DNA from: Parcubacteria group bacterium GW2011_GWC1_45_13
GTDB taxonomy: Bacteria; Patescibacteriota; Minisyncoccia; UBA11713; 2-01-FULL-45-33
Direction of reading: 5' to 3'
DNA length: 64,000 nt
NCBI GenBank assembly: GCA_001001285.1
Contig: LCKG01000004.1
Span: 1,957-65,956 of the forward strand
Part shown: piece by piece, positions 15,379-61,189 of the stretch
Layout: each line of letters starts with the position of its first letter
How positions within the stretch are numbered: the first letter of the stretch is position 1
Translations under genes and position numbers: made by a program
The notes under the pieces: model-generated
Seen by the model: the letters and a program-made list of their open reading frames with translations, nothing else
The model's database searches: none
What the model was told of the DNA's origin: nothing

Positions 15379-16623
15379 TCATATTAACTCTTTTCCCAAA
15401 TACTTTTGGAGCGCTACGGGGATTTTTATGGAGCCGTTGGGCTCTTGGTGATTTTCCAAAAGCGCTTCCAAAATTCTGGGAGTAGCAATGGCTGTGTTGT
15501 TTAATGAGTGCACGAAACGGAGCTTTCCATCAACATCGCGGTATTTAATATTTAACCGCCTTGTCTGAAAATCATGAAAATAAGAAGCCGAATGCGTTTC
15601 GCGGTATCTTTTTTCCGAAGGAATCCACGCCTCTAGGTCATATTTTTTTACTTGCCCCAAGCCGAGGTCACCTCCGCAATTTACTACAATACGGTAAGGA
15701 ATTCCCAAAGCTTGCATGATTTCTTCCGAATTTTTCGTAAGCTCTTCGTGCCATTTTACAGATTCTTGATGATCTGCTCTGCATAAAACAATTTGCTCAA
15801 CTTTAAAAAATTCATGCACCCTAAAAATCCCTTTTTGGTCCTTGCCGTAACTTCCAGCTTCGCGCCTGAAGCAGGAAGAAAACGCAACATATTTTTTGGG
15901 CAGCTCTTCTTCTTTTAAAATTTCGTCTCTATGATAACCCATCATAGGGATTTCGGCTGTGCCCGAAAGATAAATGTCGTCTCGCGTTTTTTCGTCGGAT
16001 GCCGATCCGCCTTTGGCGGAATAAACATCCTCTTCCGCTTGCGGAAACCATCCAGTTCCTACTAAGTTTTCTCTTCTTACAAGGGCGGGGGACAAAAAAG
16101 ACGTGAACCCTTTTTTAGCCACGAAATCCAGCGCAAATTGCCAAAGCGCTACGGATAAGAGCGCGGCGTCTCCTTTTAAAAAATATCCCCGGAAACCTGA
16201 GACTTTCGCTCCGCGCTCGAGATCCAGCATATCGCTGGACTGCATCAGATTTAAATAATTTTTCCCGTGCTCAACTTTTATCTTCCCCCACTTTCTTATT
16301 TCTTGATTCTCCACGTCTGATTCCCCTTCCGGAACTGACGGATCGGGGACGTTCGGCACTTGAAGCATCAACTCTTCAAATTCTTTTTCCACGGCGGAGA
16401 GTTCAAATTCTTTTTGCGAAAGCGCGTTTTTTGACACCCTAGCTTCTTCGGAAGCGTCGGTGAATTTTTTATGCTCTTGACGCAGCTTATCAACTTCATG
16501 GGTCAACGCGCGCCGTTTTTCATCAATTGCCAAAAGCCGGTCAATATCAACTTTCACGCATTTTTTTCTCGCGGCCTCTTTTATTAAATCCTTATTTTCC
16601 CTTATGAATTTTATGTCCAGCAT
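15379..16623 (-). CDS. serS: Serine-tRNA ligase
   Basis: MLDIKFIR, GTAE, FRREAG, RVHEF.KVEQ and LNNT motifs. Confidence 0.97.
   Translation of the reverse strand: MLDIKFIRENKDLIKEAARKKCVKVDIDRLLAIDEKRRALTHEVDKLRQEHKKFTDASEEARVSKNALSQKEFELSAVEKEFEELMLQVPNVPDPSVPEGESDVENQEIRKWGKIKVEHGKNYLNLMQSSDMLDLERGAKVSGFRGYFLKGDAALLSVALWQFALDFVAKKGFTSFLSPALVRRENLVGTGWFPQAEEDVYSAKGGSASDEKTRDDIYLSGTAEIPMMGYHRDEILKEEELPKKYVAFSSCFRREAGSYGKDQKGIFRVHEFFKVEQIVLCRADHQESVKWHEELTKNSEEIMQALGIPYRIVVNCGGDLGLGQVKKYDLEAWIPSEKRYRETHSASYFHDFQTRRLNIKYRDVDGKLRFVHSLNNTAIATPRILEALLENHQEPNGSIKIPVALQKYLGKELI
15991..16020. repeat. Family D 30-nt double-hairpin insert in serS
   Basis: Contains TCCGCC-TTT-GGCGGA and adds SAKGGSASDE; removal restores EDVYKTRDDIYLSGTAE. 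Confidence 0.85.
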
Positions 16624-16645
16624 AAATTGATTTTAACATATTATT

Positions 16646-16720
16646 TGCCCCCGCCGGGATTTGAACCCGGGTTACATGGATGAGAACCATGCGTCCTAGA
16701 CCAGACTAGACGACAGGGGC
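16646..16720 (-). tRNA. tRNA-Glu(CTC)
   Basis: Acceptor GCCCCTG/CGGGGGC, anticodon arm CATGG-TTCTCAT-CCATG and GGTTCAAATCC. Confidence 0.93.
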
Positions 16721-16739
16721 CTGTCTGCGCAGGCAGGCC
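16718..16739. repeat. Short family B-like palindrome between murF and tRNA-Glu
   Basis: GGCCTGTCTGCGCAGGCAGGCC. Confidence 0.65.
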
Positions 16740-18016
16740 TATTTTTTATTCTTCCAATATTCGTCCTGTCTGGCAAGTATATTTTGGGCTTCTTCAGGAT
16801 GAGCCATAAGTTCTTCTGTAATCAGCTCCATGCGCATGGACTGCGATCCTTTAACCAAAATTAGGTCGCCTTCTCGAATGATTGATTTTAAATGAGACGC
16901 AGCTTCTTGGGAAGTTGAAAAATTTATTACTTTAGACTTATTCATTTCTTGAGCGATAGCTTCTTCTGCGGCGAAGCGCGAGCGCGGACCGACTGCGACA
17001 AAATAATCCGCGATTTTAGCGATTTTTTTCCCTGCTGCTTGATGGGCCAAGATAGTAAATTTACCGATTTCAAGCATATCGCCGAAAGCGACAATTTTTC
17101 TCTCCGCATCTAATTCTTTTAACGTATCCAGAGCTGCCTCCGTGGCCAAGGGAGAGGCGTTATATGAATCGTCAAGAATCAGACTATTTTTAATTCCCGG
17201 AAGTAGTCTCAATCTGCCGGGAGGCGCGTGATACCTTGAAAGTGCCTCTGAAATTTCTATAAGGTTCATCTCAAAAATTATTCCTACCGCCGTCGCGGAC
17301 AACGCGGCGTACACAAAATGTTTTCCAAAAACATTTTTTAAGCGCACAGGCACCGAAGAGCCCTTATAGTCCATTTTAAAAGAAATGCCTTCTTTGGAAA
17401 TTTTATAATTGGAAGCCAAAATATCCGCGCCGTTTCCGAAACCGAAACCAATCACACTTGCGTTGGTTTTTAATTTTTCTCCCAAAGCAGACATGCTCCA
17501 AACTGTTTCATCGTCAAAATTCAAAATAGCCCAGTTGTCGGATGATAGATTTTTTACAAGCTTGGATTTTTCGCGTGTTACTTCCTCCGGCCCAGAAAAA
17601 AATTCAACATGCACTGGAATCTCTCCCACAGCCGTAACTATTCCGATGTCCGGACGCACAATTTTAAGTAATTTATCAAAATCGCGCGGCCGGTCAACCC
17701 CCATCTCCAAAACCAGTATTTTTGGGAAGTTCTTATTAAAAATTTCTTCAAACCCATAAATTATATTTTTAATCCATCCTATCGGACTATTCCAAGCGGT
17801 TTTTAGACCTAAAACGGCCAAAGCCATGCCCAATTCGCTGTTGTAGCTTTTAATACTTTCTCTGATATTAAACCTGCTTTCCAAGACCGCGGCCACAGCT
17901 TCTTTAGCGGACGATTTGCCAACGGACCCGGTTATGCCTATGATTCGAGGCTGGTAGCGTCTTAGCGCAATTTTAGCTTCTAAAGCGAGAATTTTTGTTA
18001 CAATTGTTTTTATCAT
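16739..18016 (-). CDS. murF: UDP-MurNAc-tripeptide D-Ala-D-Ala ligase
   Basis: GITGSVGKSS, LEMG, DDSYNASP, GDMLEIG and LVKGS motifs. Confidence 0.93.
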   Translation of the reverse strand: MIKTIVTKILALEAKIALRRYQPRIIGITGSVGKSSAKEAVAAVLESRFNIRESIKSYNSELGMALAVLGLKTAWNSPIGWIKNIIYGFEEIFNKNFPKILVLEMGVDRPRDFDKLLKIVRPDIGIVTAVGEIPVHVEFFSGPEEVTREKSKLVKNLSSDNWAILNFDDETVWSMSALGEKLKTNASVIGFGFGNGADILASNYKISKEGISFKMDYKGSSVPVRLKNVFGKHFVYAALSATAVGIIFEMNLIEISEALSRYHAPPGRLRLLPGIKNSLILDDSYNASPLATEAALDTLKELDAERKIVAFGDMLEIGKFTILAHQAAGKKIAKIADYFVAVGPRSRFAAEEAIAQEMNKSKVINFSTSQEAASHLKSIIREGDLILVKGSQSMRMELITEELMAHPEEAQNILARQDEYWKNKK

Positions 18017-20068: not shown

Positions 20069-20069
20069 A

Positions 20070-20954
20070 TTAAATTTTTTCTAAAACTCTTAATTTGGCC
20101 GACCTGGAACTAGGATTTTTAATAATTTCTTCCTGGGATGCGGTTTTTGGTTTTTTAGTCAGAATGATTGCCTTTTTTCCGACAACGGCGGAAAAAAAGT
20201 TTTTTACGATTCTGTCTTCCAGAGAATGATAGGAAATAATCGCCAGCCTCCCGCCGGCATCCAACGCGTCAAACGATTTAGGCAGAGCTTCTGTTAAAGC
20301 TTCCAACTCGTTGTTTACCGCTATCCGCAAAGCTTGGAATATCCGCGCCAGTATCTTCTCTCGGCCATCCGGCTTTTGCGCGCCCAGAGCATTGAGCAAA
20401 TCTTTTACTGAAATGATGCGCCTGCCTTGCCGGTAGGCAGGCTGTTTTTTTCTGAACTCCATGATTTTTTTGGCAAACAGCCTTGCTTTTGGTTCTTGTC
20501 CGAAATTTTTAAATATTTCTGCGAGCCTGTCTTCGGGATATCCATTTAATATTTCGGCAGCCGTGTTCGCGGATTTTTTATTTAAATTCATAAATAACGC
20601 CTCCTCCGGCTTTTGAAAAGAAAATCCTCTTCCGCTTTGTTCAAGATGCCACCGCGACATGCCGAGATCGAATAATACGGCTTTTATTTTGTTAAACCCA
20701 AGTTTTTTGATAATTTCATCAATATCTTTGAAATTTCCCCAAATAGCTGTAATATTTTTGTCTCCCTCCATCCGTTCAATCATGCTTTTATCCTGGTCTA
20801 TCCCCAGCACTTTGCCGCCTGGTTTTATAAGCTCCAGCATCATTCGCGCGTGCCCGCCGCCGTTCAAGGTGGCGTCCACCGCGTTATCCCCCGGCTTAAG
20901 ATTTAAAAGTACTTTCAATTCTTCAGTTAAAACCGGCGTGTGGATCTCTTGCAT
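20070..20954 (-). CDS. rsmH: 16S rRNA m4C1402 methyltransferase
   Basis: HTPVL, DATLNGGGH, FQALRIAVN, ISYHSLEDR and RSAKLR motifs. Confidence 0.97.
   Translation of the reverse strand: MQEIHTPVLTEELKVLLNLKPGDNAVDATLNGGGHARMMLELIKPGGKVLGIDQDKSMIERMEGDKNITAIWGNFKDIDEIIKKLGFNKIKAVLFDLGMSRWHLEQSGRGFSFQKPEEALFMNLNKKSANTAAEILNGYPEDRLAEIFKNFGQEPKARLFAKKIMEFRKKQPAYRQGRRIISVKDLLNALGAQKPDGREKILARIFQALRIAVNNELEALTEALPKSFDALDAGGRLAIISYHSLEDRIVKNFFSAVVGKKAIILTKKPKTASQEEIIKNPSSRSAKLRVLEKI
20421..20441. repeat. Family B 21-nt palindrome inside rsmH
   Basis: CCTGCCTTGCCGGTAGGCAGG adds PAYRQGR. Confidence 0.92.
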
Positions 20955-21388: not shown

Positions 21389-21398
21389 ATATTTAAAG

Positions 21399-28449: not shown

Positions 28450-28513
28450 AGGAATATGTTAACTTAATTAACGCAAAAAGAAAACCCGTCTTTAGGCGAC
28501 GGGCTCAAAGGAA

Positions 28514-28849
28514 TTAATGAATATTTGATTGACGAAGACGGCTTGCTTTTTCCGGATCAATGCCGAGAATTTGATATTTTTCCCTTGCCTTTGATTCAGT
28601 TATGTCCCCTTTCTCTAAAACCTTTCTATCCAACGCTCCTAAAATAGCTATGCGTGCTTTTAAAAAATCGCCATCGTCAAGATAAATAGCTACATTATCT
28701 TGCCCCTCATCGGTCATTAATTCCGTCGCTAGTTTTAGAAGTTGTTGCTTATATTCTTCATCCCTCCTCAAATCCGTCCCTTCTTTCATATTTATCTCCT
28801 CCTTCATGTATTTATTATAAAAACTAGCATGTCTAAAAAACTTTGGCAA
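28514..28849 (-). CDS. Hypothetical protein
   Basis: Charged ORF; the true start is probably an internal Met (~28808 or ~28790, the latter preceded by AGGAGGAG). Confidence 0.6.
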   Translation of the reverse strand: MPKFFRHASFYNKYMKEEINMKEGTDLRRDEEYKQQLLKLATELMTDEGQDNVAIYLDDGDFLKARIAILGALDRKVLEKGDITESKAREKYQILGIDPEKASRLRQSNIH

Positions 28850-28866
28850 TTTGGTGATTGATTACC

Positions 28867-28893
28867 CCACTTGGACGTCCGACGTCCAAGTGG
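28867..28893. repeat. Family A palindrome just downstream of transposase
   Basis: CCACTTGGACGTC-C-GACGTCCAAGTGG. Confidence 0.93.
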
Positions 28894-28896
28894 CTA

Positions 28897-29541
28897 TTAA
28901 TTTTCTAAAGATAACAGAACCTCTAGCTCTTTTAATAATTCTTTTCTTTGTAAAATATTTTTTAATGACTCTTCTCCAAATGTCTTATATTCTTTTTTGT
29001 TTTTAAATTGCTTAAGAATAATATTTTTATTACAAAGGTTTTCTTCACTTGAACTAATAAATTCTTCCCAACTAGAATAGGCGCCCCCCTCTTTTAATCT
29101 ATGTGCGCGGTTATTTAAATTTACATAAACGCTTGCATGCAATAAATATTCATTGGAATCAATATGACTAGATTTAAATTTGCCCTGAAAAAGTACGCCG
29201 CTCCTTTTATATTTATTATTAAAATACTTTGTATAGCCACCATTTAATCTTTTCATAAACTCGCTTAATCCACCGTCTGTTTTTGGCTCCAAAATCATAT
29301 GATAATGATTTGGATTAAGGCAATAGCAAATGATATTCACCAACTTGGACGTCTGACGTCCAAGTCGGGGTTTATCGAATGAATTTTCGTAAATACTGCC
29401 TATTGGTTCTAGAGAATTAAATTCCTTCATACTTTGAAGAAACCTCTTGAAATCATAATCGTTGTTAAATACAATACGCTTATCAGTGCCGCGGTTATAG
29501 ATATGATAAAATTCACCAATCATGAAAGCGGTTTTTCTCAT
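28897..29541 (-). CDS. HUH tyrosine transposase (Y1/IS200-like, REP-associated RAYT type)
   Basis: YHIYNRG, YCL.PNHYH (HUH), YFN.KY.RSG.LFQ..FKS, YV.LN and YSS motifs. Confidence 0.9.
   Translation of the reverse strand: MRKTAFMIGEFYHIYNRGTDKRIVFNNDYDFKRFLQSMKEFNSLEPIGSIYENSFDKPRLGRQTSKLVNIICYCLNPNHYHMILEPKTDGGLSEFMKRLNGGYTKYFNNKYKRSGVLFQGKFKSSHIDSNEYLLHASVYVNLNNRAHRLKEGGAYSSWEEFISSSEENLCNKNIILKQFKNKKEYKTFGEESLKNILQRKELLKELEVLLSLEN
29343..29365. repeat. Family A palindrome inside the transposase gene
   Basis: ACTTGGACGTC-T-GACGTCCAAGT, read as RLGRQTSKL. Confidence 0.92.
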
Positions 29542-29555
29542 GATACTATATTAGC

Positions 29556-29578
29556 ACTTGGACGTCCGACGTCCAAGT
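29556..29578. repeat. Family A palindrome just upstream of transposase
   Basis: ACTTGGACGTC-C-GACGTCCAAGT. Confidence 0.93.
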
Positions 29579-29595
29579 TGGGAAGTGGGTATAGA

Positions 29596-30657
29596 CTAAA
29601 AAACTTTGGCAATGTCGTGGTAAGTTACTACCAACATAAGAATAATTAAAATCGCGAGGCCTAAACTGTGCACCAGGGCGCTGGCCTTGGGAGAAATCCT
29701 GCGGCCAAGCAAACTTTCAATCAAAAGAAAAAATAATCTCCCACCATCCAAGCCTGGGAACGGTAAAATATTGATTAAAGAAAGATTAATGGATAAAACG
29801 GCAATTAATATAAGAAGGGCGCCAAAGCCAAGATTGATAGCCGAAGAAGTGATGTTAAAAATTCCCACAGGACCAGCGACTTCAATCGGTGGGGTTTCTC
29901 TTTCAAACAAGCTTTGTACAAGATTCCAAAATCCCAAAACCGTTCCTTTTAAAATTTCCCAAGTGAACCGGGCGCCGTCTATCGGAGCCAGATACCACGA
30001 AGTTTTTTTTACGCGCGTAAGACCGAGAGCAATCCCCAACGGCCCCTCCCCTTCCGGCGGATTTTGGCGAGAAAGCGCGCTGATCTCAATAGAATTTTTA
30101 CCTCGGATCATTGTGATTGAGATTGTTTTCCCTTGGTTTTGTTTAATAAGATTTTGCACGTCTTTTATTGTTTGAAAACCCGGAATCTGGTCTCCTGGCA
30201 TAATGCCGGCGCGGGACGCAGGCGAATTCGGCACCACATCCATAATGGTTATTTTAGCGTCGGGATAAATATTGCTTTCCTCTTCGGAGACGACTTGCGG
30301 AACGCCCAAACTGCTTACCAAAGTAAGCGCAAGAAAAGCTAAAATAATATTCGCTAATACGCCGCTGGCCAGTATCACGGCCCTTTTCGGGACAGGTTTT
30401 GACCCAAAACTTTCCGGCTGAGAAACTTCGTCACCCTCTTCGCCAAAAATTTTCACAAATCCGCCAAAAGGCAGAAGATTTAAAGAATAAAGAGTATCAT
30501 GCTTATCGCGCCATAAACTCAAAATCCGAGGAGGGATGCCGAATCCAAATTCTTCAACTTTAACGCCAAAGAACCGCGCCGTAAAAAAATGTCCGGCCTC
30601 GTGGGAGAGTACTAGGATTATAAGAATAGTCAGAAAAATTAAAAAAGTTAAAAGCAC
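29596..30657 (-). CDS. rseP: RIP metalloprotease RseP (M50) with PDZ
   Basis: HEAGH, PFGGFVKI and NILPFPGLDGG motifs. Confidence 0.94.
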   Translation of the reverse strand: MLLTFLIFLTILIILVLSHEAGHFFTARFFGVKVEEFGFGIPPRILSLWRDKHDTLYSLNLLPFGGFVKIFGEEGDEVSQPESFGSKPVPKRAVILASGVLANIILAFLALTLVSSLGVPQVVSEEESNIYPDAKITIMDVVPNSPASRAGIMPGDQIPGFQTIKDVQNLIKQNQGKTISITMIRGKNSIEISALSRQNPPEGEGPLGIALGLTRVKKTSWYLAPIDGARFTWEILKGTVLGFWNLVQSLFERETPPIEVAGPVGIFNITSSAINLGFGALLILIAVLSINLSLINILPFPGLDGGRLFFLLIESLLGRRISPKASALVHSLGLAILIILMLVVTYHDIAKVF

Positions 30658-31213: not shown

Positions 31214-31848
31214 GATATTAAATTTAAATACTCTCCCAAAAGCCTTTTGTTGACGGTCGGATCGTTTATAATTTTATGAATTTCCAGTATTTTTTCGAAT
31301 TTTAAAATATTGGCATGATTCGGATTCTTTCTTGCGGAAATTTCAGCTCCCGCAAGCGATTTAATTAATTTTGTTTTTAGCTCATCTTCTGACTTTACCG
31401 TCTCCGGCTCCGTAGTCCAGAATCTAAAAACGGAAAAACGCGATTTTATCGTGCTAAGCAAAAAAGATTTATTTTTAGTTGTCGCTATAATAATACTATT
31501 TATTGAAGGCTCCTCCAAGAGCTTAAGCATGGCGGGAGACGCTTCGCGGCTCAAGTTTTCAATATTTTTTATCAAAAAAACATTTTTTCTGCCGGAAACG
31601 GCGCTCTGCGAACTTTTTATTTTAAGCATCCTCACTTCTTCTATAGTTATCGGGTCTTCTTCAGTTTTAAAAAAATCTGGGCTGTGCGCGTAATTTTCCC
31701 CCAAAAAATAAGTCGCAAGCAAATGAACCGCCTCATCCTTCGCTTTTTCATCGTTCCCGGAAAATAAATACGCCTGCGGCAACATTCCACACTCAATTTG
31801 GCGTTTTAATAGTGATAGTGCTGAATTTTGTTGCAATTTTTCGCTCAT
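31210..31848 (-). CDS. holB: DNA polymerase III delta-prime-like clamp loader subunit
   Basis: QAYLFSG, HSPD, ITIEEVR, LKLLEEP and TIKSR motifs. Confidence 0.78.
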   Translation of the reverse strand: MSEKLQQNSALSLLKRQIECGMLPQAYLFSGNDEKAKDEAVHLLATYFLGENYAHSPDFFKTEEDPITIEEVRMLKIKSSQSAVSGRKNVFLIKNIENLSREASPAMLKLLEEPSINSIIIATTKNKSFLLSTIKSRFSVFRFWTTEPETVKSEDELKTKLIKSLAGAEISARKNPNHANILKFEKILEIHKIINDPTVNKRLLGEYLNLIS

Positions 31849-31951
31849 TCTATTTATTCACAGATGGCTATTGACATTAATAATGGGCTTGCTACGCTTA
31901 AATTACATATGGCTTCGGCCTCGCTTCGCTCAATTGCGGAGCAAATTATTT

Positions 31952-32344
31952 TCAGCCAAACAATACTTCAATTAAAGCTAATTTAAGCCTTTCAAATTGG
32001 GCTTCGTCCAGTGTTCCTATTTTACGCACCAACCTTTTTGTATCCAATAAGCGAACTTGCGAAAGCACGGCTGTCGCATCTTGCCCTATGATTTTCCCCA
32101 AGTAAAAATAATGTTTTCCGACCTTTTTTCTACCAGTTAATCCTACTCCAAAAAATGTATTTTTATTAAAGCCGCGCACTACGATTACCGGCCTGTCAAA
32201 ATTCTTGCCTGTTCCATCTTGTTCAAAACCAATATTGACGCCTAACGAACACCACCATATCTCGCGCTCATGATAAAAGTGTAAAACATTCTGGCTGTGC
32301 AGTCTTTTCTTGTTTATGTTCCATCTATCAAAATCCTTTTCCAT
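31952..32344 (-). CDS. PemK/MazF-family toxin-like protein
   Basis: EIWWCSLGVNIGFEQDG..RPV and LSQVRLLD.KRL; start placed at MEKDFD. Confidence 0.85.
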   Translation of the reverse strand: MEKDFDRWNINKKRLHSQNVLHFYHEREIWWCSLGVNIGFEQDGTGKNFDRPVIVVRGFNKNTFFGVGLTGRKKVGKHYFYLGKIIGQDATAVLSQVRLLDTKRLVRKIGTLDEAQFERLKLALIEVLFG

Positions 32345-32348
32345 AATC

Positions 32349-33146
32349 TTATTCTTTATTCTTATCCCTCTCCTCCACAAATTTTTTAACTTCCTCGTAG
32401 CTCATCTTCTTTGGCCAATATAAGTTGCCATATACATCGTAAATTGGTAATAACAAATTCCCTTTTTCTTTATAAACTTGTTCAGATAATATTCCGATTT
32501 CTGCAGCTAATTGGTCATATTGGTAATTATCCTGTAGTTTTAACAAAATGCCATTGAAAAAACGTGGTGGTACTCGGTGAGACAAATTAAAACCATAAGC
32601 TGTGGTAAATTTTCTTGTACTTCGCTTATAATATGTTTCATAGTACTTACGACTCATTTTATTCGTATCGTCATCATATGTGAATTTAGACAGGTCAAAT
32701 ATGAAAGCTAGTGCGTTTTTCTTTGAACTTCCTGCAGATTTACTTATCCATGTTTCTCCTGACTGCGTATTCGGCGTTTCCTCTTCATGCGCCATACCTG
32801 TTACATTAAAATAAACGTTAGATCTTCCTCCTTTTCTAAGCGAAACCTGAGCTTCTTTTGCCCACTGTTCCTTTGTCGGCGGCACTCCCTCCAAATAAAA
32901 TTTTTCTGGGGTGCCTAGTAATCCTTCTTTCAAAATCCGCACGAGTTTTGTTTTTTGTAAGTTATCCTGTTCAAATATGGACCCTGCAGAGTACGGCCCT
33001 CCGCTCACAAAAGAATAAGCTACCCCTGCTTCATTAATATCCTGCACCTTGTTCATCACTTTCTCTAAAACTTCCGGAGAAAGTTCGGATTCTGGAGATT
33101 TAGTACTTTCTTTAAAGCTTTCTATTGCTGGCGGTTTTTCGGGCAT
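32349..33146 (-). CDS. Hypothetical protein (AT-rich)
   Basis: Long ORF with start placed at MPEKPP; contains ILKEGLL and PIYD..GNL.WPK. Confidence 0.75.
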   Translation of the reverse strand: MPEKPPAIESFKESTKSPESELSPEVLEKVMNKVQDINEAGVAYSFVSGGPYSAGSIFEQDNLQKTKLVRILKEGLLGTPEKFYLEGVPPTKEQWAKEAQVSLRKGGRSNVYFNVTGMAHEEETPNTQSGETWISKSAGSSKKNALAFIFDLSKFTYDDDTNKMSRKYYETYYKRSTRKFTTAYGFNLSHRVPPRFFNGILLKLQDNYQYDQLAAEIGILSEQVYKEKGNLLLPIYDVYGNLYWPKKMSYEEVKKFVEERDKNKE

Positions 33147-34161: not shown

Positions 34162-35418
34162 TTATATCTGTTTTATATCTGCGCCTATGGAGCGAAGCCT
34201 ATAATCTATATTTTCGTATCCTCTCTCAATTTGATAAATATTTCCAATACTTGTTTCTCCGCTAGCTATAAGTCCGGCGATTATAAACGCCAAACCTGCA
34301 CGAATATCAGGGCTTTCCAGAGCTCTCCCGGACAATTTAGTAGGCCCGTAGACTATGGCCCTATGCGGATCGCACAGCGTTATCCGTGAACCCATTTTAT
34401 TCAAATCCTGAATATAATTCAACCTCCCTTCAAAAACAGTCTCATGCACCAAACTCTGTCCTTCAGCCTGGGTAAGCAAAATAGTAAAAGGAGCTTGAAG
34501 ATCCGTTGGAAAACCGGGGAATTCTTTGGTGGTGACATTGCTCGCGCGCAAAGTTTTTTTATAAGCATCTTTTCCGCCAAAGGCGGACCAACCTTTGGCT
34601 GGAAAAATAATAGAATTATTTTCCAAAACATACTCCACGCCTACATTGAAAAGCAAAACCAGAAAAGTCGACAGTTCTCCCGCAACGAAATTCTTTATTC
34701 TTAAATTTTTTCCGAGAAGCGCTCCCAAGATAGCGAAACTCCCAGCTTCAATTCTATCTGGCGGTACGATAAATCGCGTGCTATAATTAAGAAGTTTCCC
34801 TGATCGTCCTTCTATTTTTATAGTTGTGGTGCCGGCGCCCGCGATTTGAGCGCCATTGGCATTAAGAAAATCGGCTAAATATTTAATCTCGGGTTCAAGC
34901 ACAGCATTTCGTAAAATAGTAGTTCCTTTTGCTAAAACAGCGGTCATAATCAAAGCTTCCGTTCCAGTCACCGAAGGGATTTTAAACGTGTAATCAACTC
35001 CGAAAAGTCCTTCCGGAGCAGTGATTTCATAATCTGCCGGAGCGCTCTTCGACAATTTAGTTTTTGCTCCCATGATTTTCCAGCCATCCAAAAATACATC
35101 AATTGGGCGCTCTCCAATGACACATCCACCTGGATGAGGAAAAGCGACTTTGCCAAAACGCGCGAGAGCCGCACCAACCGGTAAAATCGATGCGCGAAAT
35201 TTTTTTGCTATTTCGTAATCAATCCTCCCGTCCGCATCCAATTTATCAAGAAGCTCCTGCATTCTTTTTACGTCTTCAATATTTGGTAAATTTTCAATTT
35301 CAATCTTTTCTTTAAATAAAACAGAAGAGGCTAAAACAGGCAGCGCCGCATTTTTACTGCCGTTGATTTCTATCTCGCCTTCCAGTGCCCTGCCTCCCTT
35401 TATTAAAAATTTTGTCAT
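34162..35418 (-). CDS. murA: UDP-GlcNAc 1-carboxyvinyltransferase
   Basis: GSKNAALP, PGGC.IG.RP, PGFPTDLQ, DIRAG and IERGYE motifs. Confidence 0.97.
   Translation of the reverse strand: MTKFLIKGGRALEGEIEINGSKNAALPVLASSVLFKEKIEIENLPNIEDVKRMQELLDKLDADGRIDYEIAKKFRASILPVGAALARFGKVAFPHPGGCVIGERPIDVFLDGWKIMGAKTKLSKSAPADYEITAPEGLFGVDYTFKIPSVTGTEALIMTAVLAKGTTILRNAVLEPEIKYLADFLNANGAQIAGAGTTTIKIEGRSGKLLNYSTRFIVPPDRIEAGSFAILGALLGKNLRIKNFVAGELSTFLVLLFNVGVEYVLENNSIIFPAKGWSAFGGKDAYKKTLRASNVTTKEFPGFPTDLQAPFTILLTQAEGQSLVHETVFEGRLNYIQDLNKMGSRITLCDPHRAIVYGPTKLSGRALESPDIRAGLAFIIAGLIASGETSIGNIYQIERGYENIDYRLRSIGADIKQI
34573..34602. repeat. Family D 30-nt double-hairpin insert in murA
   Basis: TCCGCC-AAA-GGCGGA-CCAACC-TTT-GGCTGG adds PAKGWSAFGG. 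Confidence 0.82.
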
Positions 35419-36671: not shown

Positions 36672-36959
36672 TTGGACATTATACGACAAAATCAGAACCT
36701 TTTTTGAGCAAAATCCCAACTGATTTACCCCTTCATTCACCCCTTCATCGGCTCTGCCTCGGAATGAAGGGGTAGCTCTGTTGATTTGCCTTATGTTTAC
36801 TGGACTTTCTAACCTTCGCTCTTCAAAATCCCAAACCCGACTTCACTCCGCTACGCCCCATTCCACGCTTGTGCTGTTTTCCACGAAAGTCCTCCTGTGG
36901 AGGACTGGCTCGCCGCCCAGCTGGGCGGCTCGCAGGTCGCCGGAATTCCTCCCCTCAAA
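36672..36959 (+). repeat. Left copy of ~290-bp inverted element flanking the island
   Basis: Aligns along its length with the reverse complement of 39880-40170; 36831-36879 is identical but for one indel. Confidence 0.88.
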
Positions 36960-37087
36960 CCCCTCCTTTCGGCTGGTCCTTAGATGAGGTAGATAAGCAG
37001 TTATCCACAGGTGAGTACTTTACAAGAATGTGATATTGGTATAGGATCATACTATCACTTAATAAACTATCAATTAGTATACAAAAT

Positions 37088-38740
37088 ATGGAAAAAAACC
37101 AAAAAACTGAGACCATAGATATCACACCGGATAAGAGTATTTATCACAAAATTGGGGAAGCTAATTATTCGATCTCTGATGCACTTGCAGAATTAGTAGA
37201 CAACTCAATTGATGCTGCGAATGAAGATGGCGTCGAGATATTTATTGTCTTAGATAAGAAGGGAGAAAAAATCATTGTCGAAGACAACGGGCAAGGGATG
37301 AGCAAAGAGATAGCTTCGAAGAGTCTAGTACTTGCCTATTCTAAAAAACATGATGCACTAGGCGAGTTTGGCTTGGGTTTAAAATCAGCTTGCACAAGTC
37401 TCGGAACAATTTTTGTTATAACAAGTACTCCAAAAGGCTCTGAAGAAAAATATACTCTCGAATATAATAAGGAGCAATTTTTACAATCAAGTGATTGGCA
37501 TAAGTATCCTCTTACAATCATAAAGGCTCCGAAGAATGAACACGGAACAAAAATAGAAATTAGTAGTTTGAAGATCAAATTATATGATGCACTTGTTACG
37601 CGTCTCAAGGAGGACTTAGCAAAAAGATACGGCCCATATATTGAGCATAACAATGTTGTCATTAAAGTCGGCTTGAGGAGAGAGACGGCTAAACCGTGCG
37701 TACCTAGCGAAAATAAACTAGTTCCTGACTCGAAGAAAGATTTCTCATATATGCTTTCAAAAGGAAGCACTATTACGGGTTGGTATGGTCTTTTAGAGGT
37801 TGGATCACAAAAACAAAGCGGTTTCAACCTATTCCGAAGAGGACGATTAATAAGAGCGTCTGAGAAACTTGGTTATAACTATCACCCACACCTTATGAGT
37901 GTTGCGGGGGAAATAAATTTGGATTCCGTACCAGTAACACACAATAAACGAGAATTCATTATTGAATCTAGCGAATTTAAAGAATTTATTGAAAAATTTT
38001 GGGGCGATCAAACTGAAAAATATTTGGGGTACAAAGTTAAGGGTAAAATCGATGAGATAACAAAAACCGCCAGAGATCGATCAAGCCAAGAAAAAGCGGA
38101 TAGTATGCCAGTTGAAAGAAAAGAAACAATAAAAAATAACTTATTGAATGCCCTTAACCGCCTCGATGAATTCAAAGAATTAGCTTACCCAGATCTATAT
38201 CAACCTAAAAAGAGGTCTGCAACTGGGAAGGAAGATTTTAAGGAAACCAGAGAAACTGATTTGCGAGTAGCTAAAGAAGAGGAAGTGCCGCTTACAAAGG
38301 AAGAAAGGGATCAAAGAACACCCAAAAAGACACAGCCCAAAACAGCCAAGTTTATAATGGTTGGGGGGAAAAAATTCAAATTTGATTTCTTTCTAAGAAA
38401 TCTGGGGAACGATACTATCGATAAGGAAACTATTATTAATCAAGAAAATGTTATCGAAATATATATTAACACGGGATTCAAGGGTTATGGTTTAACAAAG
38501 GATACTGATTTTTATTCTACCTTCCATATAGCGGAGGCTATTGCCGAACTTTATGTTAAAGAAGCTAATCAAAAGGTAGAAAGGATTTTTGAGCTAAGAA
38601 ATAGTCTCATATACGAAGTTGCATCTTTAATATACGAGGAAGAGGAATATAAAAGGCTTGAAAAAACTGAAAAAGAGTTGGCTGCAGTTACTGACAAAAA
38701 AAGAGAGCTTGAAGAAAAGAGAGCAAGAACGAGTTTATGA
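37088..38740 (+). CDS. GHKL (HATPase_c/MORC-like) ATPase with C-terminal coiled coil
   Basis: AELVDNSIDA, EDNGQGM, GEFGLGLK and HGTKI Bergerat boxes; S5-like region (RRGRLI, THNK). Confidence 0.9.
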   Translation: MEKNQKTETIDITPDKSIYHKIGEANYSISDALAELVDNSIDAANEDGVEIFIVLDKKGEKIIVEDNGQGMSKEIASKSLVLAYSKKHDALGEFGLGLKSACTSLGTIFVITSTPKGSEEKYTLEYNKEQFLQSSDWHKYPLTIIKAPKNEHGTKIEISSLKIKLYDALVTRLKEDLAKRYGPYIEHNNVVIKVGLRRETAKPCVPSENKLVPDSKKDFSYMLSKGSTITGWYGLLEVGSQKQSGFNLFRRGRLIRASEKLGYNYHPHLMSVAGEINLDSVPVTHNKREFIIESSEFKEFIEKFWGDQTEKYLGYKVKGKIDEITKTARDRSSQEKADSMPVERKETIKNNLLNALNRLDEFKELAYPDLYQPKKRSATGKEDFKETRETDLRVAKEEEVPLTKEERDQRTPKKTQPKTAKFIMVGGKKFKFDFFLRNLGNDTIDKETIINQENVIEIYINTGFKGYGLTKDTDFYSTFHIAEAIAELYVKEANQKVERIFELRNSLIYEVASLIYEEEEYKRLEKTEKELAAVTDKKRELEEKRARTSL

Positions 38741-38810
38741 GACCCAAAGATATAGGAAAGACAAACATAAAGGTCGATACGATAATAATAAATTATAATT
38801 TAATACCACA

Positions 38811-39233
38811 ATGAAGAAAAAAGTTTTTGTTAGCTTCGATTATGATAATGATAAGCACTACAAATATCTTCTTGAGGCATGGGACGCGAATCCTCAATTT
38901 AATTTTGTCTTCAATGACGCGACACCAGAGGAAATCGATAGCTACAATATCGGTAGAATCAAAGCGGCCTTAACCTTAAAAGTTAAGGAGGCAGACTACA
39001 CACTAGTTCTTGTAGGTAAGGAAGCGAATAAGACCCATAGACACAGTCGACTTATTGGCTTTAAAAACTGGATCAACTTTGAGGTTGCTAAGAGTAAAGA
39101 GCTTGGAAACAAAATCGTTGCCGTCAAATTAGATAGAGAGAATGAATCTCCAGAGGAGCTGCTCGACTCAGGTGCTTCTTGGGCTATGAGTTTTTCTCAA
39201 GCCGCAATTATCAAGGCATTGAATGATGCCTAA
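38811..39233 (+). CDS. TIR-domain protein (ThsB/DUF1863-like)
   Basis: KVFVSFDYDND, TLVLVG and WINFEV with the catalytic Glu. Confidence 0.9.
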   Translation: MKKKVFVSFDYDNDKHYKYLLEAWDANPQFNFVFNDATPEEIDSYNIGRIKAALTLKVKEADYTLVLVGKEANKTHRHSRLIGFKNWINFEVAKSKELGNKIVAVKLDRENESPEELLDSGASWAMSFSQAAIIKALNDA

Positions 39234-39243
39234 GTGAATATCT

Positions 39244-39849
39244 ATGAGCATAAGCGACGATAAAAAACTAGAGACGCTTAACGATCACTACAAAGATACA
39301 TTCGCTCAAATACGTGATTATATCTCACTGCGTGATAAGTTGTTGATCTGGATTCTCTTGGTAGCTGCAGTGATGTTATTCGAAGTTTTTTCTCCGAGTG
39401 AGGCCGGCTTAGCTATCGCACAATTTGCGTCCGAAAAGGTCGGCCTTAATGGAGCCTTAATTAACACCTCATTCATCGGAAGCGTCATTTGGTTTTTGAT
39501 GCTCGTTTTGACAATGAAATATTTTCAAACAGTGGGGTTAATTGAGAAACATTATGATTATATTGAAAAAGTAGAGGACGCTATAAGAAAAAACTACGAT
39601 GGAGCTACGGGAATCTTTTCTAGAGAGGGACGACACTATCTCGAAAACTATCCTCTCTTTTCTGATTGGTCGTGGCTCTTATATACGATAATTTTCCCGA
39701 TACTATTAGTCGCCGTTTTGTTATATAAAATATATAATGAGGTTTTTATTTCAGGTTGCAGCGTGATTTTCTATATAAATCTTTTAATATTTATTTGCAT
39801 AGTTACGTCAACGATTCTTTATTTAAGGATGTTGCATTTTAAAAAATAG
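39244..39849 (+). CDS. Four-TM membrane protein, putative effector
   Basis: Four hydrophobic segments; starts 10 nt after the TIR gene. Confidence 0.8.
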   Translation: MSISDDKKLETLNDHYKDTFAQIRDYISLRDKLLIWILLVAAVMLFEVFSPSEAGLAIAQFASEKVGLNGALINTSFIGSVIWFLMLVLTMKYFQTVGLIEKHYDYIEKVEDAIRKNYDGATGIFSREGRHYLENYPLFSDWSWLLYTIIFPILLVAVLLYKIYNEVFISGCSVIFYINLLIFICIVTSTILYLRMLHFKK

Positions 39850-39879
39850 TTCTCGGCCATGCGACCTTGAGCTATGAAT

Positions 39880-40170
39880 TTTGAGGGGAGGAATTTCGGC
39901 GACCAAGCGAGCCGACCAGCAGGGCGGCGAGCCAATCCGCCGGAGGCGGATATTGTGGGAAACAGCACAAGCGTGGAATGGGGGCGTAGCGGAGTGAAGT
40001 CGGGTTTGGAATTTGAGGGAGGCGAAGTCAGAATAGCGAGTAATGACAGGCGGATTTGAGAACGGAGGGTAGTCATTCCGAGGTAGGGCGAATGACTACC
40101 TGAATGACTAGGTAAATCAGTCAGGATTTTGCTCAAAATGAGTCCGAACAGTATCATAAAGACACCACCA
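39880..40170 (-). repeat. Right copy of ~290-bp inverted element
   Basis: Reverse complement matches 36672-36959. Confidence 0.88.
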
Positions 40171-53680: not shown

Positions 53681-53756
53681 TAAAAATCACCCTTTAGGCG
53701 CCCGCCTGCCGGCGGACAAGAATGTTCTCCCATACTAGCTCTCCTTTAAAACAATG

Positions 53757-54628: not shown

Positions 54629-54639
54629 CCAAAACATTT

Positions 54640-57331: not shown

Positions 57332-57406
57332 GAAGGTATTATAACACGCCATTTACAAATTTTAAGCAATTGCTATGATGCTGGGCAGGGAAGGAGGACA
57401 AAAACC

Positions 57407-57649
57407 ATGCCGGTAGACAATGTGCTTAGCGATTTTTGGAGTCGCCCTTGGAAATGCGGAGTATACTATAATCGCCATCACAGGCGCCGAGGGTTTATAA
57501 CTTGGCTAAAAATGGGCGGGTGGACGCGTGAAGGGATAAAACAAGAGGCTGAAAACAGAAAGGTCCCGCTCGAGCGTGTCTATAAAGAGCATCTTCGGCG
57601 ACACAGATACAATCCGGAGTGTTTCTTAAGCCGCGCTGAATCCGTCTAA
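57407..57649 (+). CDS. Hypothetical small basic protein
   Basis: AAGGAGG SD upstream; terminator GCCCCG...CGGGGC-T5 at ~57665-57690. Confidence 0.62.
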   Translation: MPVDNVLSDFWSRPWKCGVYYNRHHRRRGFITWLKMGGWTREGIKQEAENRKVPLERVYKEHLRRHRYNPECFLSRAESV

Positions 57650-57781
57650 GATTCCGGTCAATCGGCCCCGACTTCACGGGGCTTTTTATTTTACTCAATT
57701 TCATTTAATTTCACTCAATTACTAATTTTACTTTCTTTTGCGATAGCAAAAGAAATGCAAATCTTGAAATTAGAAAATTTC

Positions 57782-59551
57782 TTATTCCACAGTTGCACGG
57801 ATGCGGCGAATGCCGGAGCCGACGGCTTCCTGCTTCAATATTTTAAACCGGCCGATTTCGGAAGTGTTTTTGACGTGCGGGCCACTGCAGAGCTCTCTTG
57901 AGAAAATTTCCGGCGGGTCGACCTTAAAATCCCCCACTAAATAAACTTTAACTCTTGCTGGATATTTTTCCTTAAAAAAATGCTGCGCGCCCAATTTTAA
58001 GGCGTCTTCATAAGCCATCTCTTTCATCTCAACATGATATTTTTTACCAACCGCAAAATTTACTAGATCTTCAACTTTTTTAACTTCTTCATCCGTAAGT
58101 TTTCTGTCAAACGAAAAATCAAATCTTGTCCGCTCGGCCGTGATGTCAGAACCGGCCTGTTTTACTCCTTCTCCCAAAACTTTTCTCAAAGCTGCCTGCA
58201 AAAGATGCGTCACCGTGTGCAATCTTGTTACTTTTTTCAACTCTGCTTCGTCCGCGGCTTTCAATTCTCCCGTATCCAGCAGCAACCCATGCCCTCCGAA
58301 TTTTTTCTCAATGCCAGCGCGGGATATTTCCTGATGTTTTTGAAATTCTTTATTAAAACTCTCCTCATCTACAGAATGCCCGCCTTGCCGAACTAAATCT
58401 TTTATAATATCAATTGTTAACCCGTAAGTTTGATGAAAATAAAAAGCATCTTTACCAGAAATAACTTTTAAGTCATGAGATTTGTAAGTCCCTCTTTCTT
58501 TCGGGGCATTAATTTGAGCTTCAATTTCCGGATATTTTTTTAAAAACTCATTCAGTCCATTTTCTAAAGTTTTATTAAATTTGTTAATTTCCGCATTGAT
58601 TTCTTTAATGATTTTTTCTTTGTTTATCATTAACTCTTTGTAGAAATCGTAATAATTTATTACTCCTTCAATTTCTGGAATAAACAACTCAAATGATTTA
58701 TGACCAATTGTCCTCCATCTTACCGCAATACGTCGAATCAATCTTCTTAAAATATAACCAGCCTCCTTATTGGATGGGCTGACTCCATCAGCTATTAAAA
58801 AGACACTACCTTTTAAATGGTCTGCGAGAACTCTGCCATCAATACCATAAGCAGGAAGGAGTTTAAATGGTTTTTGAAATAAATCAGTTTCAAAAATAGT
58901 TTTTTTGCCCTGCGAGACCATCGCGAGGCGCTCCAGCCCCATGCCGGTGTCCACGCCTAGCGTTTTCAGTTTTTCAAAAGTACTATCAGGTTTTTTGTAA
59001 TATTCATTAAAAACAATGTTCCACATCTCCACGCCGTTTATGTAAATTTCTGTCGTTGGACCGCAAGGCCCCTCCGTGCCGGTCGGCCCCCAAAAGTTAT
59101 CCTCGCGGCCGGCTTTTCGGATGTCTTTCACGCCGAGCGATTGCCAGATTTTATAAGATTCCTCGTCAAACGGCGTCTTTTCATCACCCGCGAAAACCGT
59201 GACGTATTCAATTTTAAGCCCGAGTGATTCCAAAAATTTTTTAGCGTACTTTATCGCCTCTTCCTTAAAATATCCTCCGAAACTGAAATTCCCCAACATC
59301 TCAAAAAAAGTAAGGTGCGATTCGTCCCCTACTTCATCAATGTCGGAAGTGCGGAAGCATTTTTGAATTGAAACAACATTAGGCGCGGGCGCAAGCGACG
59401 GCTCGGTATAATATTTCTTAAACTGCTGCATTCCTGCGGTGGTCAAAAGCACCGATAGGTCGTCTGGAATTAAAGAAGAAGATGGTACAATTTTGTGCCC
59501 GCGTTCTTTAAAAAATTCCAGAAACTTTTCTCGAAGCTCTGCGGAAGACAT
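57782..59551 (-). CDS. alaS: Alanine-tRNA ligase (lacks C-Ala domain)
   Basis: AGMQQFK, HLTFFEMLGNFSFG, DTGMGLER, HTVTHLL and ELCSGPHV motifs. Confidence 0.97.
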   Translation of the reverse strand: MSSAELREKFLEFFKERGHKIVPSSSLIPDDLSVLLTTAGMQQFKKYYTEPSLAPAPNVVSIQKCFRTSDIDEVGDESHLTFFEMLGNFSFGGYFKEEAIKYAKKFLESLGLKIEYVTVFAGDEKTPFDEESYKIWQSLGVKDIRKAGREDNFWGPTGTEGPCGPTTEIYINGVEMWNIVFNEYYKKPDSTFEKLKTLGVDTGMGLERLAMVSQGKKTIFETDLFQKPFKLLPAYGIDGRVLADHLKGSVFLIADGVSPSNKEAGYILRRLIRRIAVRWRTIGHKSFELFIPEIEGVINYYDFYKELMINKEKIIKEINAEINKFNKTLENGLNEFLKKYPEIEAQINAPKERGTYKSHDLKVISGKDAFYFHQTYGLTIDIIKDLVRQGGHSVDEESFNKEFQKHQEISRAGIEKKFGGHGLLLDTGELKAADEAELKKVTRLHTVTHLLQAALRKVLGEGVKQAGSDITAERTRFDFSFDRKLTDEEVKKVEDLVNFAVGKKYHVEMKEMAYEDALKLGAQHFFKEKYPARVKVYLVGDFKVDPPEIFSRELCSGPHVKNTSEIGRFKILKQEAVGSGIRRIRATVE

Positions 59552-59571
59552 AGGGCTATTTTAGCATTAAA

Positions 59572-59626
59572 ATCATTGCTTTAGCAATGATCCCGACGTA
59601 CGTCGGGATGAAAGCTAAAGCTTTCA
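59572..59626. repeat. Three abutting palindromes upstream of alaS
   Basis: ATCATTGCT-TT-AGCAATGAT, ATCCCGACGTACGTCGGGAT and TGAAAGCT-AA-AGCTTTCA. Confidence 0.85.
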
Positions 59627-59676
59627 AAATAAAAAAGCGGCAGACGCTTATGCCACTCTAATTTTGCGTCTGCCGC
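59627..59676 (-). terminator. Terminator-like hairpin after the 59682..60059 ORF
   Basis: GCGGCAGACGC / GCGTCTGCCGC stem with a T run on the minus strand. Confidence 0.65.
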
Positions 59677-59681
59677 CAAAG

Positions 59682-60059
59682 TTACCTGCGCGAATGCTTC
59701 AATCTAGCGGTGTTTTTCCCCGCCAGCCGCTCCTCTTTCCAACGCACCAGCCCCTTGCGAATATATTGGGGGTCAAACCCCAAAGCACCGCAGATGTTAT
59801 TGAAGGAAAAAAGCCAATCCTTTTCCTCTTCCAAAACCCACTCCTCCGCGTCGCGAAACATCCTCTTTCTTTTGCCGATGCGGGCGGCGACATATTTCTG
59901 GAAGCAAGTCACCGCATCCTTCAGCACTGCCAGCATGAGGTCCTTTTCCGGCTCTAATTGGGCCTTACTGCGCAAGGTCTCAAAATATTGAGCCGGAATA
60001 AGGGTATCCGACTGAAATAAAGACCCTACTTTTTCATCTACCGAGAGACCATTTTCCAT
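59682..60059 (-). CDS. Hypothetical protein, probably acquired
   Basis: GAAGGAGG SD and its own terminator; LEPEK.LMLAVL.DA..CFQKY...AEEW...FSF.NIC..LG.DP.YIR. Confidence 0.8.
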   Translation of the reverse strand: MENGLSVDEKVGSLFQSDTLIPAQYFETLRSKAQLEPEKDLMLAVLKDAVTCFQKYVAARIGKRKRMFRDAEEWVLEEEKDWLFSFNNICGALGFDPQYIRKGLVRWKEERLAGKNTARLKHSRR

Positions 60060-60127
60060 GTTTACGTCCTCCTTCTTTCTTTTTTAACCATAGCACAAGC
60101 TAAGAAAAAAATCAAGAGGCAGGATAA

Positions 60128-61189
60128 TTATACGACTATGACGCCTCCCCCGAGCATTTCTTCATCCTTGCCCGGCTTGCCGTCGGGCAGGTAAAAAACA
60201 GCCGACTGTCCAGGGGCTACAGCGCGCTGGGGAAAATCAAAAACGACTCGCCCATCGCCGAAGAGAGAGCATGCCTGAAGCGGCTGACGGTGGCGAATAC
60301 GAACTTGGCATGGAAAAGGCATTTCTGGTCCGCCAGCCGGCGGATTACCAATCCAATTAAAATTTTCCGCGAACAATTCTCTTTTATAAAGTGCTGAATC
60401 TTGTTTTTGAGATACCATTATAGTATTCGTTGCCAAATCTTTTTTTGCTACATAAACTGGCTCCGCTTGCCCGCCCAGCGCTAAACCGTGCCTTTGGCCA
60501 ATGGTATAAAAATGTGCGCCATCATGCTCGCCAATTTTCTTGCCATCGGACGTCATAATCACGCCTGATTTTTGAGGCAATGTTTCCCTTATGAAATCCG
60601 CAAAATTAACTTTGCCGACAAAACAAAGTCCTTGCGAATCTTTTTTATTGGCCACCGGCAAACCAAAACCGCGCGCGAGATCTCGTGCTTCGCTTTTTAA
60701 ATAATTCCCGATCGGGAACAAGCAATGTTTAAGCTGGTCTTGCGTCAAAGTCCACAAGAAATAGGATTGGTCCTTATTTTTGTCTTTGGCCGCAAACAAT
60801 TTGCTTCCAAACTTTCTTACATAATGTCCTGTCGCCATAAAGTCAGCTCCCGCCTCCAGTGCGCGCTTCAAAAAAATACCGAACTTTATTTCTTTATTGC
60901 ACATAACGTCCGGATTGGGTGTGCGGCCAGCCATATATTCGCAAATCATATAATCGTAAACGGCTTTTTTATATTCTTTTTTAAAATCCCAAACCAAAAA
61001 CGGAATGCCTAAAACCGCCGCAACGCGCATCGCGTCTTGTTTATCTTCGTTATTTTCACATCCTTCCCAACAAATCATATGCGCCCCGGTCACGTCATAA
61101 CCTTGTTTTTGCAACAACAAAGCCGCCACGGACGAATCCACTCCGCCTGACATTGCCACGAAGACCTTTTTATTCAAAACTTTGCGCAT
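60128..61189 (-). CDS. mnmA: tRNA 2-thiouridylase MnmA
   Basis: AMSGGVDSSVAA, TPNPDVMCN, KDQSYFL, DSQGLCF and PGQSAVFY motifs. Confidence 0.97.
   Translation of the reverse strand: MRKVLNKKVFVAMSGGVDSSVAALLLQKQGYDVTGAHMICWEGCENNEDKQDAMRVAAVLGIPFLVWDFKKEYKKAVYDYMICEYMAGRTPNPDVMCNKEIKFGIFLKRALEAGADFMATGHYVRKFGSKLFAAKDKNKDQSYFLWTLTQDQLKHCLFPIGNYLKSEARDLARGFGLPVANKKDSQGLCFVGKVNFADFIRETLPQKSGVIMTSDGKKIGEHDGAHFYTIGQRHGLALGGQAEPVYVAKKDLATNTIMVSQKQDSALYKRELFAENFNWIGNPPAGGPEMPFPCQVRIRHRQPLQACSLFGDGRVVFDFPQRAVAPGQSAVFYLPDGKPGKDEEMLGGGVIVV
60171..60191. repeat. Family B 21-nt palindrome (diverged) inside mnmA
   Basis: CCCGGCTTGCCGTCGGGCAGG; removal restores VFYKDEEMLGGGVI. Confidence 0.88.
60329..60344. 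repeat. Family D single hairpin inside mnmA
   Basis: TCCGCC-AGCC-GGCGGA read as PPAGG; similar CCGCCTGCCGGCGG is intergenic at 53702-53715. Confidence 0.6.

Follow-up and report, generated by a model that had tools for sequence, protein, structure and literature searches.

Two in-frame inserts, each made of a 30-nt twin hairpin that we call D30, lie in the serS and murA genes of a 64,000-nucleotide stretch of contig LCKG01000004.1 of Parcubacteria group bacterium GW2011_GWC1_45_13 (hereafter the window). Our data make it very probable that D30 is a mobile, translated insert. With moderate confidence we regard the serS and murA inserts as solo copies of an element that also bounds GIY-YIG nuclease cassettes in tRNA genes, and that is likely spread by the nuclease and likely translated. 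The preliminary description of this DNA had united the double hairpins of serS and murA and a single hairpin of mnmA in one family, D; the inserts themselves are real, but they represent two elements, D30 and the 16-nt D16. The window comes from a genome of 756 kb (44% GC, 28 contigs, 95% complete); groundwater and soil metagenomes contain its sequence, and no RNA dataset is among the records listed as containing it.

D30 in serS and murA

The serS gene (15379..16623, minus strand) is intact (TIGR00414, 428.5 bits, cut-off 301.65), is the only match in the genome and keeps the invariant T222 and E224. Its D30 insert (15991..16020, minus strand) encodes residues 202-211, SAKGGSASDE, and is placed between TAT and AAA with no duplication. 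All 29 orthologues obtained from 40 relatives searched show a 10-residue gap at this position and none of them carries the insert; without it the protein reads EDVYKT, and removal thus restores an orthologue-like sequence near the catalytic loop, as had been proposed. A contig from a different study that spans 15544-16645 is identical throughout, serS insert included. The second hairpin of this copy has decayed with the reading frame kept. In the predicted SerRS model the insert block (201-210) has a pLDDT of 58 against a mean of 86.8; the block lies ten residues ahead of T222-x-E224, and solved homologues have a short turn at the insert position.

The murA gene (34162..35418, minus strand) is likewise intact (TIGR01072, 413 bits, cut-off 392.7). 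Its insert (34573..34602, minus strand) encodes residues 273-282, PAKGWSAFGG, lies between TTT and AAA, and has a CCAGCC stem variant as its first hairpin. It is a clean gain of 30 nt versus both genus mates and is absent from every other murA row covering the site; two relatives have a 30-mer of their own in murA at a different site. The coordinates reported earlier for both double hairpins are confirmed, and in orthologue alignments both segments are gapped rather than aligned ungapped.

D30 consists of a 15-nt unit joined to its own reverse complement, i.e. two 15-nt hairpins, with no spacer and no tag. We compared three genomes of the genus, this one and its mates G001 and G002 (571 kb of G002 covered), and counted occurrence in a wider set of 151 genomes of the class. 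The three genomes contain 32 D30-like copies (at most 5 mismatches), 30 of them in homologue-confirmed open reading frames and 2 outside genes. The largest net gain of the coding copies versus an orthologue is +30 in 16, +24 to +33 in 7, +15 in 3 and 0 in 2, the remaining 2 having no aligned orthologue; one of the zero-gain copies is a chance match (G001 L114:5589, 4 mismatches) and the other has an insert-bearing orthologue. A direct duplication of 2-6 nt accompanies only 1 of 161 exact D30 copies. At the 322 ends of these copies T occupies positions -3, -2 and -1 in 61, 84 and 61% of cases, which gives a target site of about TTY^RAA; the respective values for the 24 copies outside long frames are 65, 85 and 67%. 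The bias is also present in non-coding copies, therefore it reflects a preference at the DNA level and not a codon effect.

The first loop ends in A in 304 of 322 cases (both strands of the 161 exact copies). The 59 imperfect copies, which are related and not independent, have 141 deviating stem bases; for 104 of these the short hairpin holds a compensating base, for none does the long fold. The alternative fold into one long 15-bp hairpin was rejected: the unit loops match in 30 of 161 copies versus 23 by shuffle (p 0.06), with no cross-unit stem compensation. The murA copy prefers the long fold by energy. We also rejected the single 15-nt copy as a mobile unit; nine exact standalone copies are found in the three genomes, and since three occupy sites where a relative has D30, they are read as deletion products.

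The D30 consensus is open in all three frames, and target-like sites split 0.41/0.21/0.38 by frame. Of the 30 coding D30-like copies, 28 are in frame 0, reading SAxGGSAxGG, versus about 41% expected. When the chance match is removed and two shared sites are counted once, 25 of 27 independent events are in this frame (p 3e-8). In the wider set, 64 of the 74 copies located in frames of at least 150 residues are in frame 0, with 54 copies in shorter frames not scored. This bias points to translation and to filtering at the protein level, in which the Pro-rich and Arg-rich readings would have been lost. D30 is likely translated, as a glycine/serine loop that the protein tolerates.

The hairpins are far more frequent than expected, the outcome of a frequency check suggested in the preliminary description. 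Exact TCCGCC-N3-GGCGGA occurs 11 times and the N4 form 16 times in this genome, versus about 0.25 expected per loop length; other loop lengths give 0-2. The corresponding N3 and N4 counts are 25 and 12 in G001 and 11 and 8 in G002. Overall, exact hairpins exceed expectation 40-60-fold, the reversed pattern occurs 0-1 times, and shuffles of the window yield 0.02 hairpins versus 3 observed. Exact D30 is present in 26 of the 151 genomes; the control patterns run for D30 and D16 were found in 0 and 2. Among species genomes, a scan found at least 126 stretches with D30, and 80 titled stretches include Patescibacteria, Omnitrophota, Kiritimatiellae, Lentisphaerae, Ignavibacteria, Planctomycetales and Chloroflexota; intergenic copies are commoner in records from outside Patescibacteria. 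Forms of D30 were also seen in 2 and 10 viral contigs. Of the 10 checked, not one has a tRNA gene or a GIY-YIG gene as its neighbour; the cassette nuclease yielded no viral relatives either, and a phage source of D30 was rejected.

D16 in mnmA and other repeats of the window

The D16 hairpin of mnmA (60329..60344, minus strand; PPAGG) gives a net gain of +12 and +9 versus the two genus mates. The gene (60128..61228, minus strand) is intact (NF001138, 412.3 bits, cut-off 284). Near its 3' end it contains a second insert, LPDGKPGK, a B-like imperfect palindrome (60166..60191, minus strand; ends approximate, read from the sequence), which bears out the earlier claim that mnmA has been hit twice. 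Several relatives carry other inserts in the loop that holds this second one. Among mnmA orthologues (L061-L075), the surroundings of residue 140 and the last loop are recurrent hot spots, and many relatives have unrelated inserts of 15-60 residues.

D16 is a sister element of D30 with common stems and a different footprint, probably 16 nt in and about 4 out, or else variable under selection for frame. Its 36 exact copies in the three genomes include 29 in homologue-confirmed open reading frames, and these use all three frames (18, 7 and 4). For the 28 exact coding copies that could be aligned to an orthologue, the net gain is +12 in 16, +9 in 4 and +15 in one; a single non-coding copy showed +13. 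Exact D16 is found in 75 of the 151 genomes of the class. It shares 20 genomes with D30, which is more than random (p 0.002, the genomes being kin and not independent), and 9 of the 151 have 9-29 exact copies of D16 and zero of D30. The notion of a common 15-nt unit in single and double copies was not supported: the single copies are 16 nt long, mostly add a net 12 nt and vary between genomes apart from D30. The D16 loop was also considered as captured host sequence, and this was rejected, as the four replaced bases differ from the loop in the closest orthologues. The D16 centres CAGCTGG, CAGTTGG and CAATTGG resemble tRNA D loops, and at one locus (L548) D16 stands in place of the D arm; one may guess at a tRNA origin of D16.

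Two intergenic hairpins had been listed as relatives of these inserts, and neither assignment was supported. The hairpin at 53702-53715 is part of a 22-nt insertion upstream of infA (53698..53719), seen as a clean 22-nt gap versus both genus mates, which resembles family B and not D. The hairpin at 39935-39951, with a TCCGCC-N3-GGCGGA stem at 39936..39950, forms a stem within a longer repeat (39880-40014, with an inverted copy at 36826-36959). This repeat is 135-165 nt long and has three copies, the third on contig C6, one of them with a compensated stem variant; the stem is at most a putative relative of D and a putative insert. Between the two inverted, structured copies of about 135 nt lie a MORC/HATPase gene, a gene for a ThsB-like TIR protein and an open reading frame without an assigned family, next to a tRNA. 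The whole block (36826-40014) may be a small defence cassette whose ends are long inverted repeats.

Other features of the window may be listed briefly. In the ROK gene, said in the preliminary description to have been hit twice, we saw only the family-A hairpin at 5949-5979, no test aimed at a second hit having been made. A degenerate 15-nt D-like hairpin (20178-20192) lies in a gene of 294 aa, with a net gain of +3 and +12 versus the genus mates. A PemK/MazF-type toxin gene (31952-32380) and its neighbour are situated in a block (31830-33129) that the relatives' contigs skip. An Rfam scan of the window returned four tRNAs and nothing else.

GIY-YIG cassettes in tRNA genes and the proposed spread of D30

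The cassettes that link D30 to a nuclease are built in the order tRNA 5' part, D30, nuclease gene together with an intact tRNA, D30, tRNA 3' part. The nuclease has about 80 aa; an 80-aa protein matches PF01541, and TIGR01453 (NCBIfam) is matched only below its cut-off. Among the first 60 GIY-YIG loci checked, D30 was found just upstream in 5, and the cassette clade was followed into a set of 400 class genomes and metagenomes. Within the 125 nt upstream, a D-type hairpin accompanies 21 of 25 nucleases with at least 62% identity to the query, 14 of 39 at 50-62% and 1 of 25 below 50%. When GIY-YIG genes were picked by Pfam, D30 was upstream in 5 of 29 tRNA-adjacent genes and in 0 of 67 others. 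A scan of 204 distinct genes, among which this clade is over-represented, gave twin hairpins at both ends in 11 (read by eye), upstream only in 18, downstream only in 7 (a few of them incidental) and none in 168. In 7 of the 11 double-ended cassettes the copies at the two ends are identical in both loops.

Comparison of the cassette pseudo-tRNA with its own intact tRNA reveals a gain of 30 nt at the Lys and Ser anticodon loops and at the Val and Lys D arms, and none of these internal comparisons shows a direct duplication. D30 is located at differing positions of Lys, Val, Ser, Tyr, Gln and Asn tRNAs; the cut points are in the anticodon loop for Lys and Ser, in the T loop for Gln and Asn, and in D arms. 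The loop cut points TTT^AAG, TTC^GAA and TTG^AAA fit the target consensus of solo D30. On the nuclease tree the D label needs 11 changes versus 33 in shuffles, and family B groups with different nucleases. One genome (G291) has 19 exact D30 copies in 0.4 Mb and a cassette bounded by two identical D30 variants. Another (G077) has a tRNA-Lys cassette bounded by two D16 copies, which suggests a like partner for D16.

Several further arrangements were seen around tRNA-linked GIY-YIG genes. Cassettes in tRNA-Leu (L438, L441-L443, L449, L453) have up to three clean 19-nt single-hairpin inserts per dead tRNA half, and two loci (L303, L483) have cassette ends where D30 is nested in another D30. In this genome such genes (C3:62300-63300, C10:2675, C12:7460) are accompanied by other hairpin families in the dead tRNA halves. 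Two small GIY-YIG genes (L223, L236) appear to lie within 16S rRNA sequence.

We consider the nuclease of about 80 aa to be the mobiliser of D30 with somewhat better than even probability. By analogy with SsnA (PMC11893778), it would bind the twin hairpin in single-stranded DNA and nick beside it. Host repair would then join the 30-mer into a new site, a step for which we know no precedent. A solo copy could arise if the 30-mer itself moved, or if a cassette collapsed between the repeats at its two ends. Direct insertion is the more likely route in single-copy essential genes such as serS, because a whole cassette would break the gene. A copy in a gene would persist if it reads SAxGGSAxGG in a tolerant loop.

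A number of observations weigh against the nuclease as the mobiliser of D30. This genome has six small GIY-YIG genes, not one of which lies between D30 copies, and the best identity to the cassette query is 53%. G001 has 19 D30-like copies and no close relative of the nuclease (0 matches at E 1e-18), and G098 has 5 exact D30 copies and no GIY-YIG match. A planned genome-level test of cassette presence against D30 copy number was unsupportive as designed: five cassette genomes contained 1, 1, 1 (the cassette's own), 1 and 0 exact D30 copies versus 1, 0, 5, 19 and 0 in the five intended controls. The cassette sets are enriched by design, since their sources were D-rich genomes and homology searches with a single clade. 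The nuclease tree comprises 75 columns and its support is weak, and 12 of the 28 aligned coding D30-like copies are not exactly +30. Finally, GIY-YIG enzymes cut DNA by hydrolysis and do not rejoin it, hence insertion of D30 needs an extra host step. Two high-copy controls of the planned test later proved to be carriers of D30 cassettes. Matches to the G291 nuclease occur in 9 of the 151 genomes, 5 of them D30-positive, of which three had served to find the clade. D30-positive genomes have a mean of 4.0 GIY-YIG genes versus 2.2 in the others, these genomes also being kin. Transient cassette visits or unassembled tRNA loci would explain D30-rich genomes without a cassette.

The strongest alternative, although in our opinion an unlikely one, is that D30 and D16 are moved by a host process or another enzyme, for example by capture of single-stranded hairpins during repair or DNA uptake, and that they accumulate in the dead tRNA halves next to GIY-YIG genes because these are neutral, well-fitting targets. 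One would argue for it from the D30-rich G001 and G098, where no cassette was found, from the crowding of several hairpin families in the same pseudo-tRNAs, with up to three 19-nt inserts in one, and from the fit of tRNA loops to the target consensus. Against it stand the matching D30 copies at both ends of a block at one tRNA position, and a hairpin family that tracks the nuclease group across different tRNAs. Additionally, ordinary intergenic DNA is not filled with D30, as only 2 of the 32 D30-like copies lie outside genes.

A quite improbable alternative is that D is a REP/REPIN family (repetitive extragenic palindromes and their doublets) moved by a RAYT-like Y1 (HUH) transposase. Strand joining is part of HUH chemistry, and this genome has six RAYT-sized Y1 genes, five of them with a clear flanking palindrome. 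D30 resembles a minimal REPIN in being an inverted doublet of short hairpins without target duplication (PMC3116915). The palindromes at these Y1 genes are repeats of their own, though, and none is D. The preliminary description had suggested looking for a second HUH transposase flanked by the hairpin: none of 33 Y1 loci inspected (6 in this genome and 27 of 35 from ten relatives) is D-flanked, and the gene that D30 does bound encodes a small GIY-YIG nuclease. Y1 is present in 18 of 26 D30-positive and 76 of 125 D30-negative genomes (p 0.51), three D30-rich genomes have no Y1 match, and none of the 161 exact D30 copies has a GTAG/CGTC foot. After a search of this genome, ten relatives and the 151 genomes of the class, a Y1/HUH partner for D was rejected. 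The view that the in-frame insertions derive from dispersed hairpins which form a family separate from the Y1-linked family A, and that several lineages of micro-palindromes coexist in one genome, was upheld.

As regards the Y1 genes themselves, the transposase at 28897-29541 has family-A palindromes on either side and one inside the gene (29343-29365). Its block (28467-29608) is bounded by a 17-nt direct repeat, and the relatives' contigs skip from 28466 to 29609. At least four of the six Y1 genes stand between duplicates of 17-50 nt of host sequence.

It is very improbable that the hairpins are recoding or regulatory RNA, skipped by ribosomes or kept for control of the mRNA, the peptides being not made or irrelevant. 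Skipped intragenic hairpins (byps) exist in yeast mitochondria, and the D stems are structurally constrained. Contrastingly, the coding copies are nearly all in the Gly/Ser-rich frame out of three open ones, their sites are scattered and lineage-specific, and the serS copy lost its second hairpin yet kept the frame. We give practically no credence to chance Ser-Ala-x-Gly-Gly codons or assembly error, for although one-mismatch single hairpins include ungapped chance matches, and the 4-mismatch copy of G001 is one such match, this explanation is already refuted for exact and near-exact copies by their excess, the clean orthologue gaps and the independent contig with the serS insert.

Significance and comparison with known systems

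If the nuclease indeed spreads D30, a nuclease fold seldom counted as a transposase would be added to those that move DNA. In its widest form, which we entertain only tentatively and judge somewhat less probable than its opposite, the 80-residue GIY-YIG nuclease would be the transposase of a new class of mobile elements: an autonomous block that enters a tRNA gene, repairs it with the spare tRNA that it carries and has 30-nt twin-hairpin ends, solo copies that move in trans as Gly/Ser linkers in essential proteins across several uncultured phyla, and one nuclease clade per hairpin family. The 30-nt element has an exact footprint and a target consensus, relatives show its empty sites, and the gene that it bounds encodes a candidate enzyme of 80 residues; the question of mobility is therefore testable with one small protein and a few oligonucleotides. 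Nature has, in the D inserts, also carried out a kind of linker scanning on essential proteins of streamlined genomes. Being lineage-specific loops of low complexity, the inserts are able to mislead alignments.

Small dispersed repeats of cyanobacteria, the subject of Elhai et al. in 2008, are reportedly very small GC-rich mobile hairpin elements, a class with which D may overlap. In the main texts of the open literature we found no description of a D element or of the cassette. Already known are in-frame coding palindromes (Rickettsia palindromic elements, RPE, and intragenic REPs), hairpin-flanked nuclease genes (Ssn) and GIY-YIG genes at tRNAs (SegB). The sources cited below were available to us in part, and the comparisons refer to those parts.

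Among very small elements, the yeast mitochondrial GC42 (PMC4478555) is a GC-rich mobile hairpin, as D would be; its stems are constrained and its loops vary. However, GC42 has an AG target-site duplication, and its 89 sites in S. cerevisiae are intergenic or intronic. The target-site duplication of miniature inverted-repeat transposable elements is likewise absent from D30 (1/161). RPE and intragenic GTAG/CGTC REPs (PMC10969869, PMC3733652) place in-frame palindromes in unrelated housekeeping genes, including tRNA synthetases, and add short peptides as D does. RPE are about 150 bp with a conserved long peptide, whereas the D elements have 30 and 16 nt. Most REPs carry a tag and lie between genes; D30 has no tag, lies mostly within genes and is found across several phyla, and in place of the REP tag its 161 exact copies have T-rich/A-rich host sequence as flanks. 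REPIN-RAYT systems (Bertels and Rainey, 2011; PMC3116915) share with D30 an inverted hairpin doublet as a non-autonomous unit and a cognate enzyme gene that is flanked. The D30 units, however, have no spacer, the flanked gene is GIY-YIG and not Y1, and REPINs are described as extragenic.

Two GIY-YIG systems are closer to the cassettes. SegB of phage T4 (PMC2330249) is also encoded among tRNA genes, and it recognises the TPsiC stem-loop, while the Gln and Asn cassettes split the T loop. It is a free-standing homing endonuclease that cuts double-stranded DNA of alleles without its own gene. The D30 cassettes keep an intact copy of the split tRNA, and the hairpins that bound them as direct repeats are also found solo. 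The Ssn nucleases with their NTS/SRM hairpins (Chenal et al., 2025; PMC11893778) share with the cassette nuclease a small single-domain GIY-YIG gene flanked by a genome-dispersed hairpin of about 30 nt; SsnA cuts single-stranded DNA near the hairpins that flank its own gene. The text on this system speaks of cleavage and control of transformation, not of mobilisation. D30 differs from it in being a symmetric twin hairpin without a CGTC-type tag or the SRM motif of a tagged, oriented hairpin, in having 30 of 32 copies in genes versus 2% for NTS, and in having its nuclease in a tRNA-splitting block with a spare tRNA.

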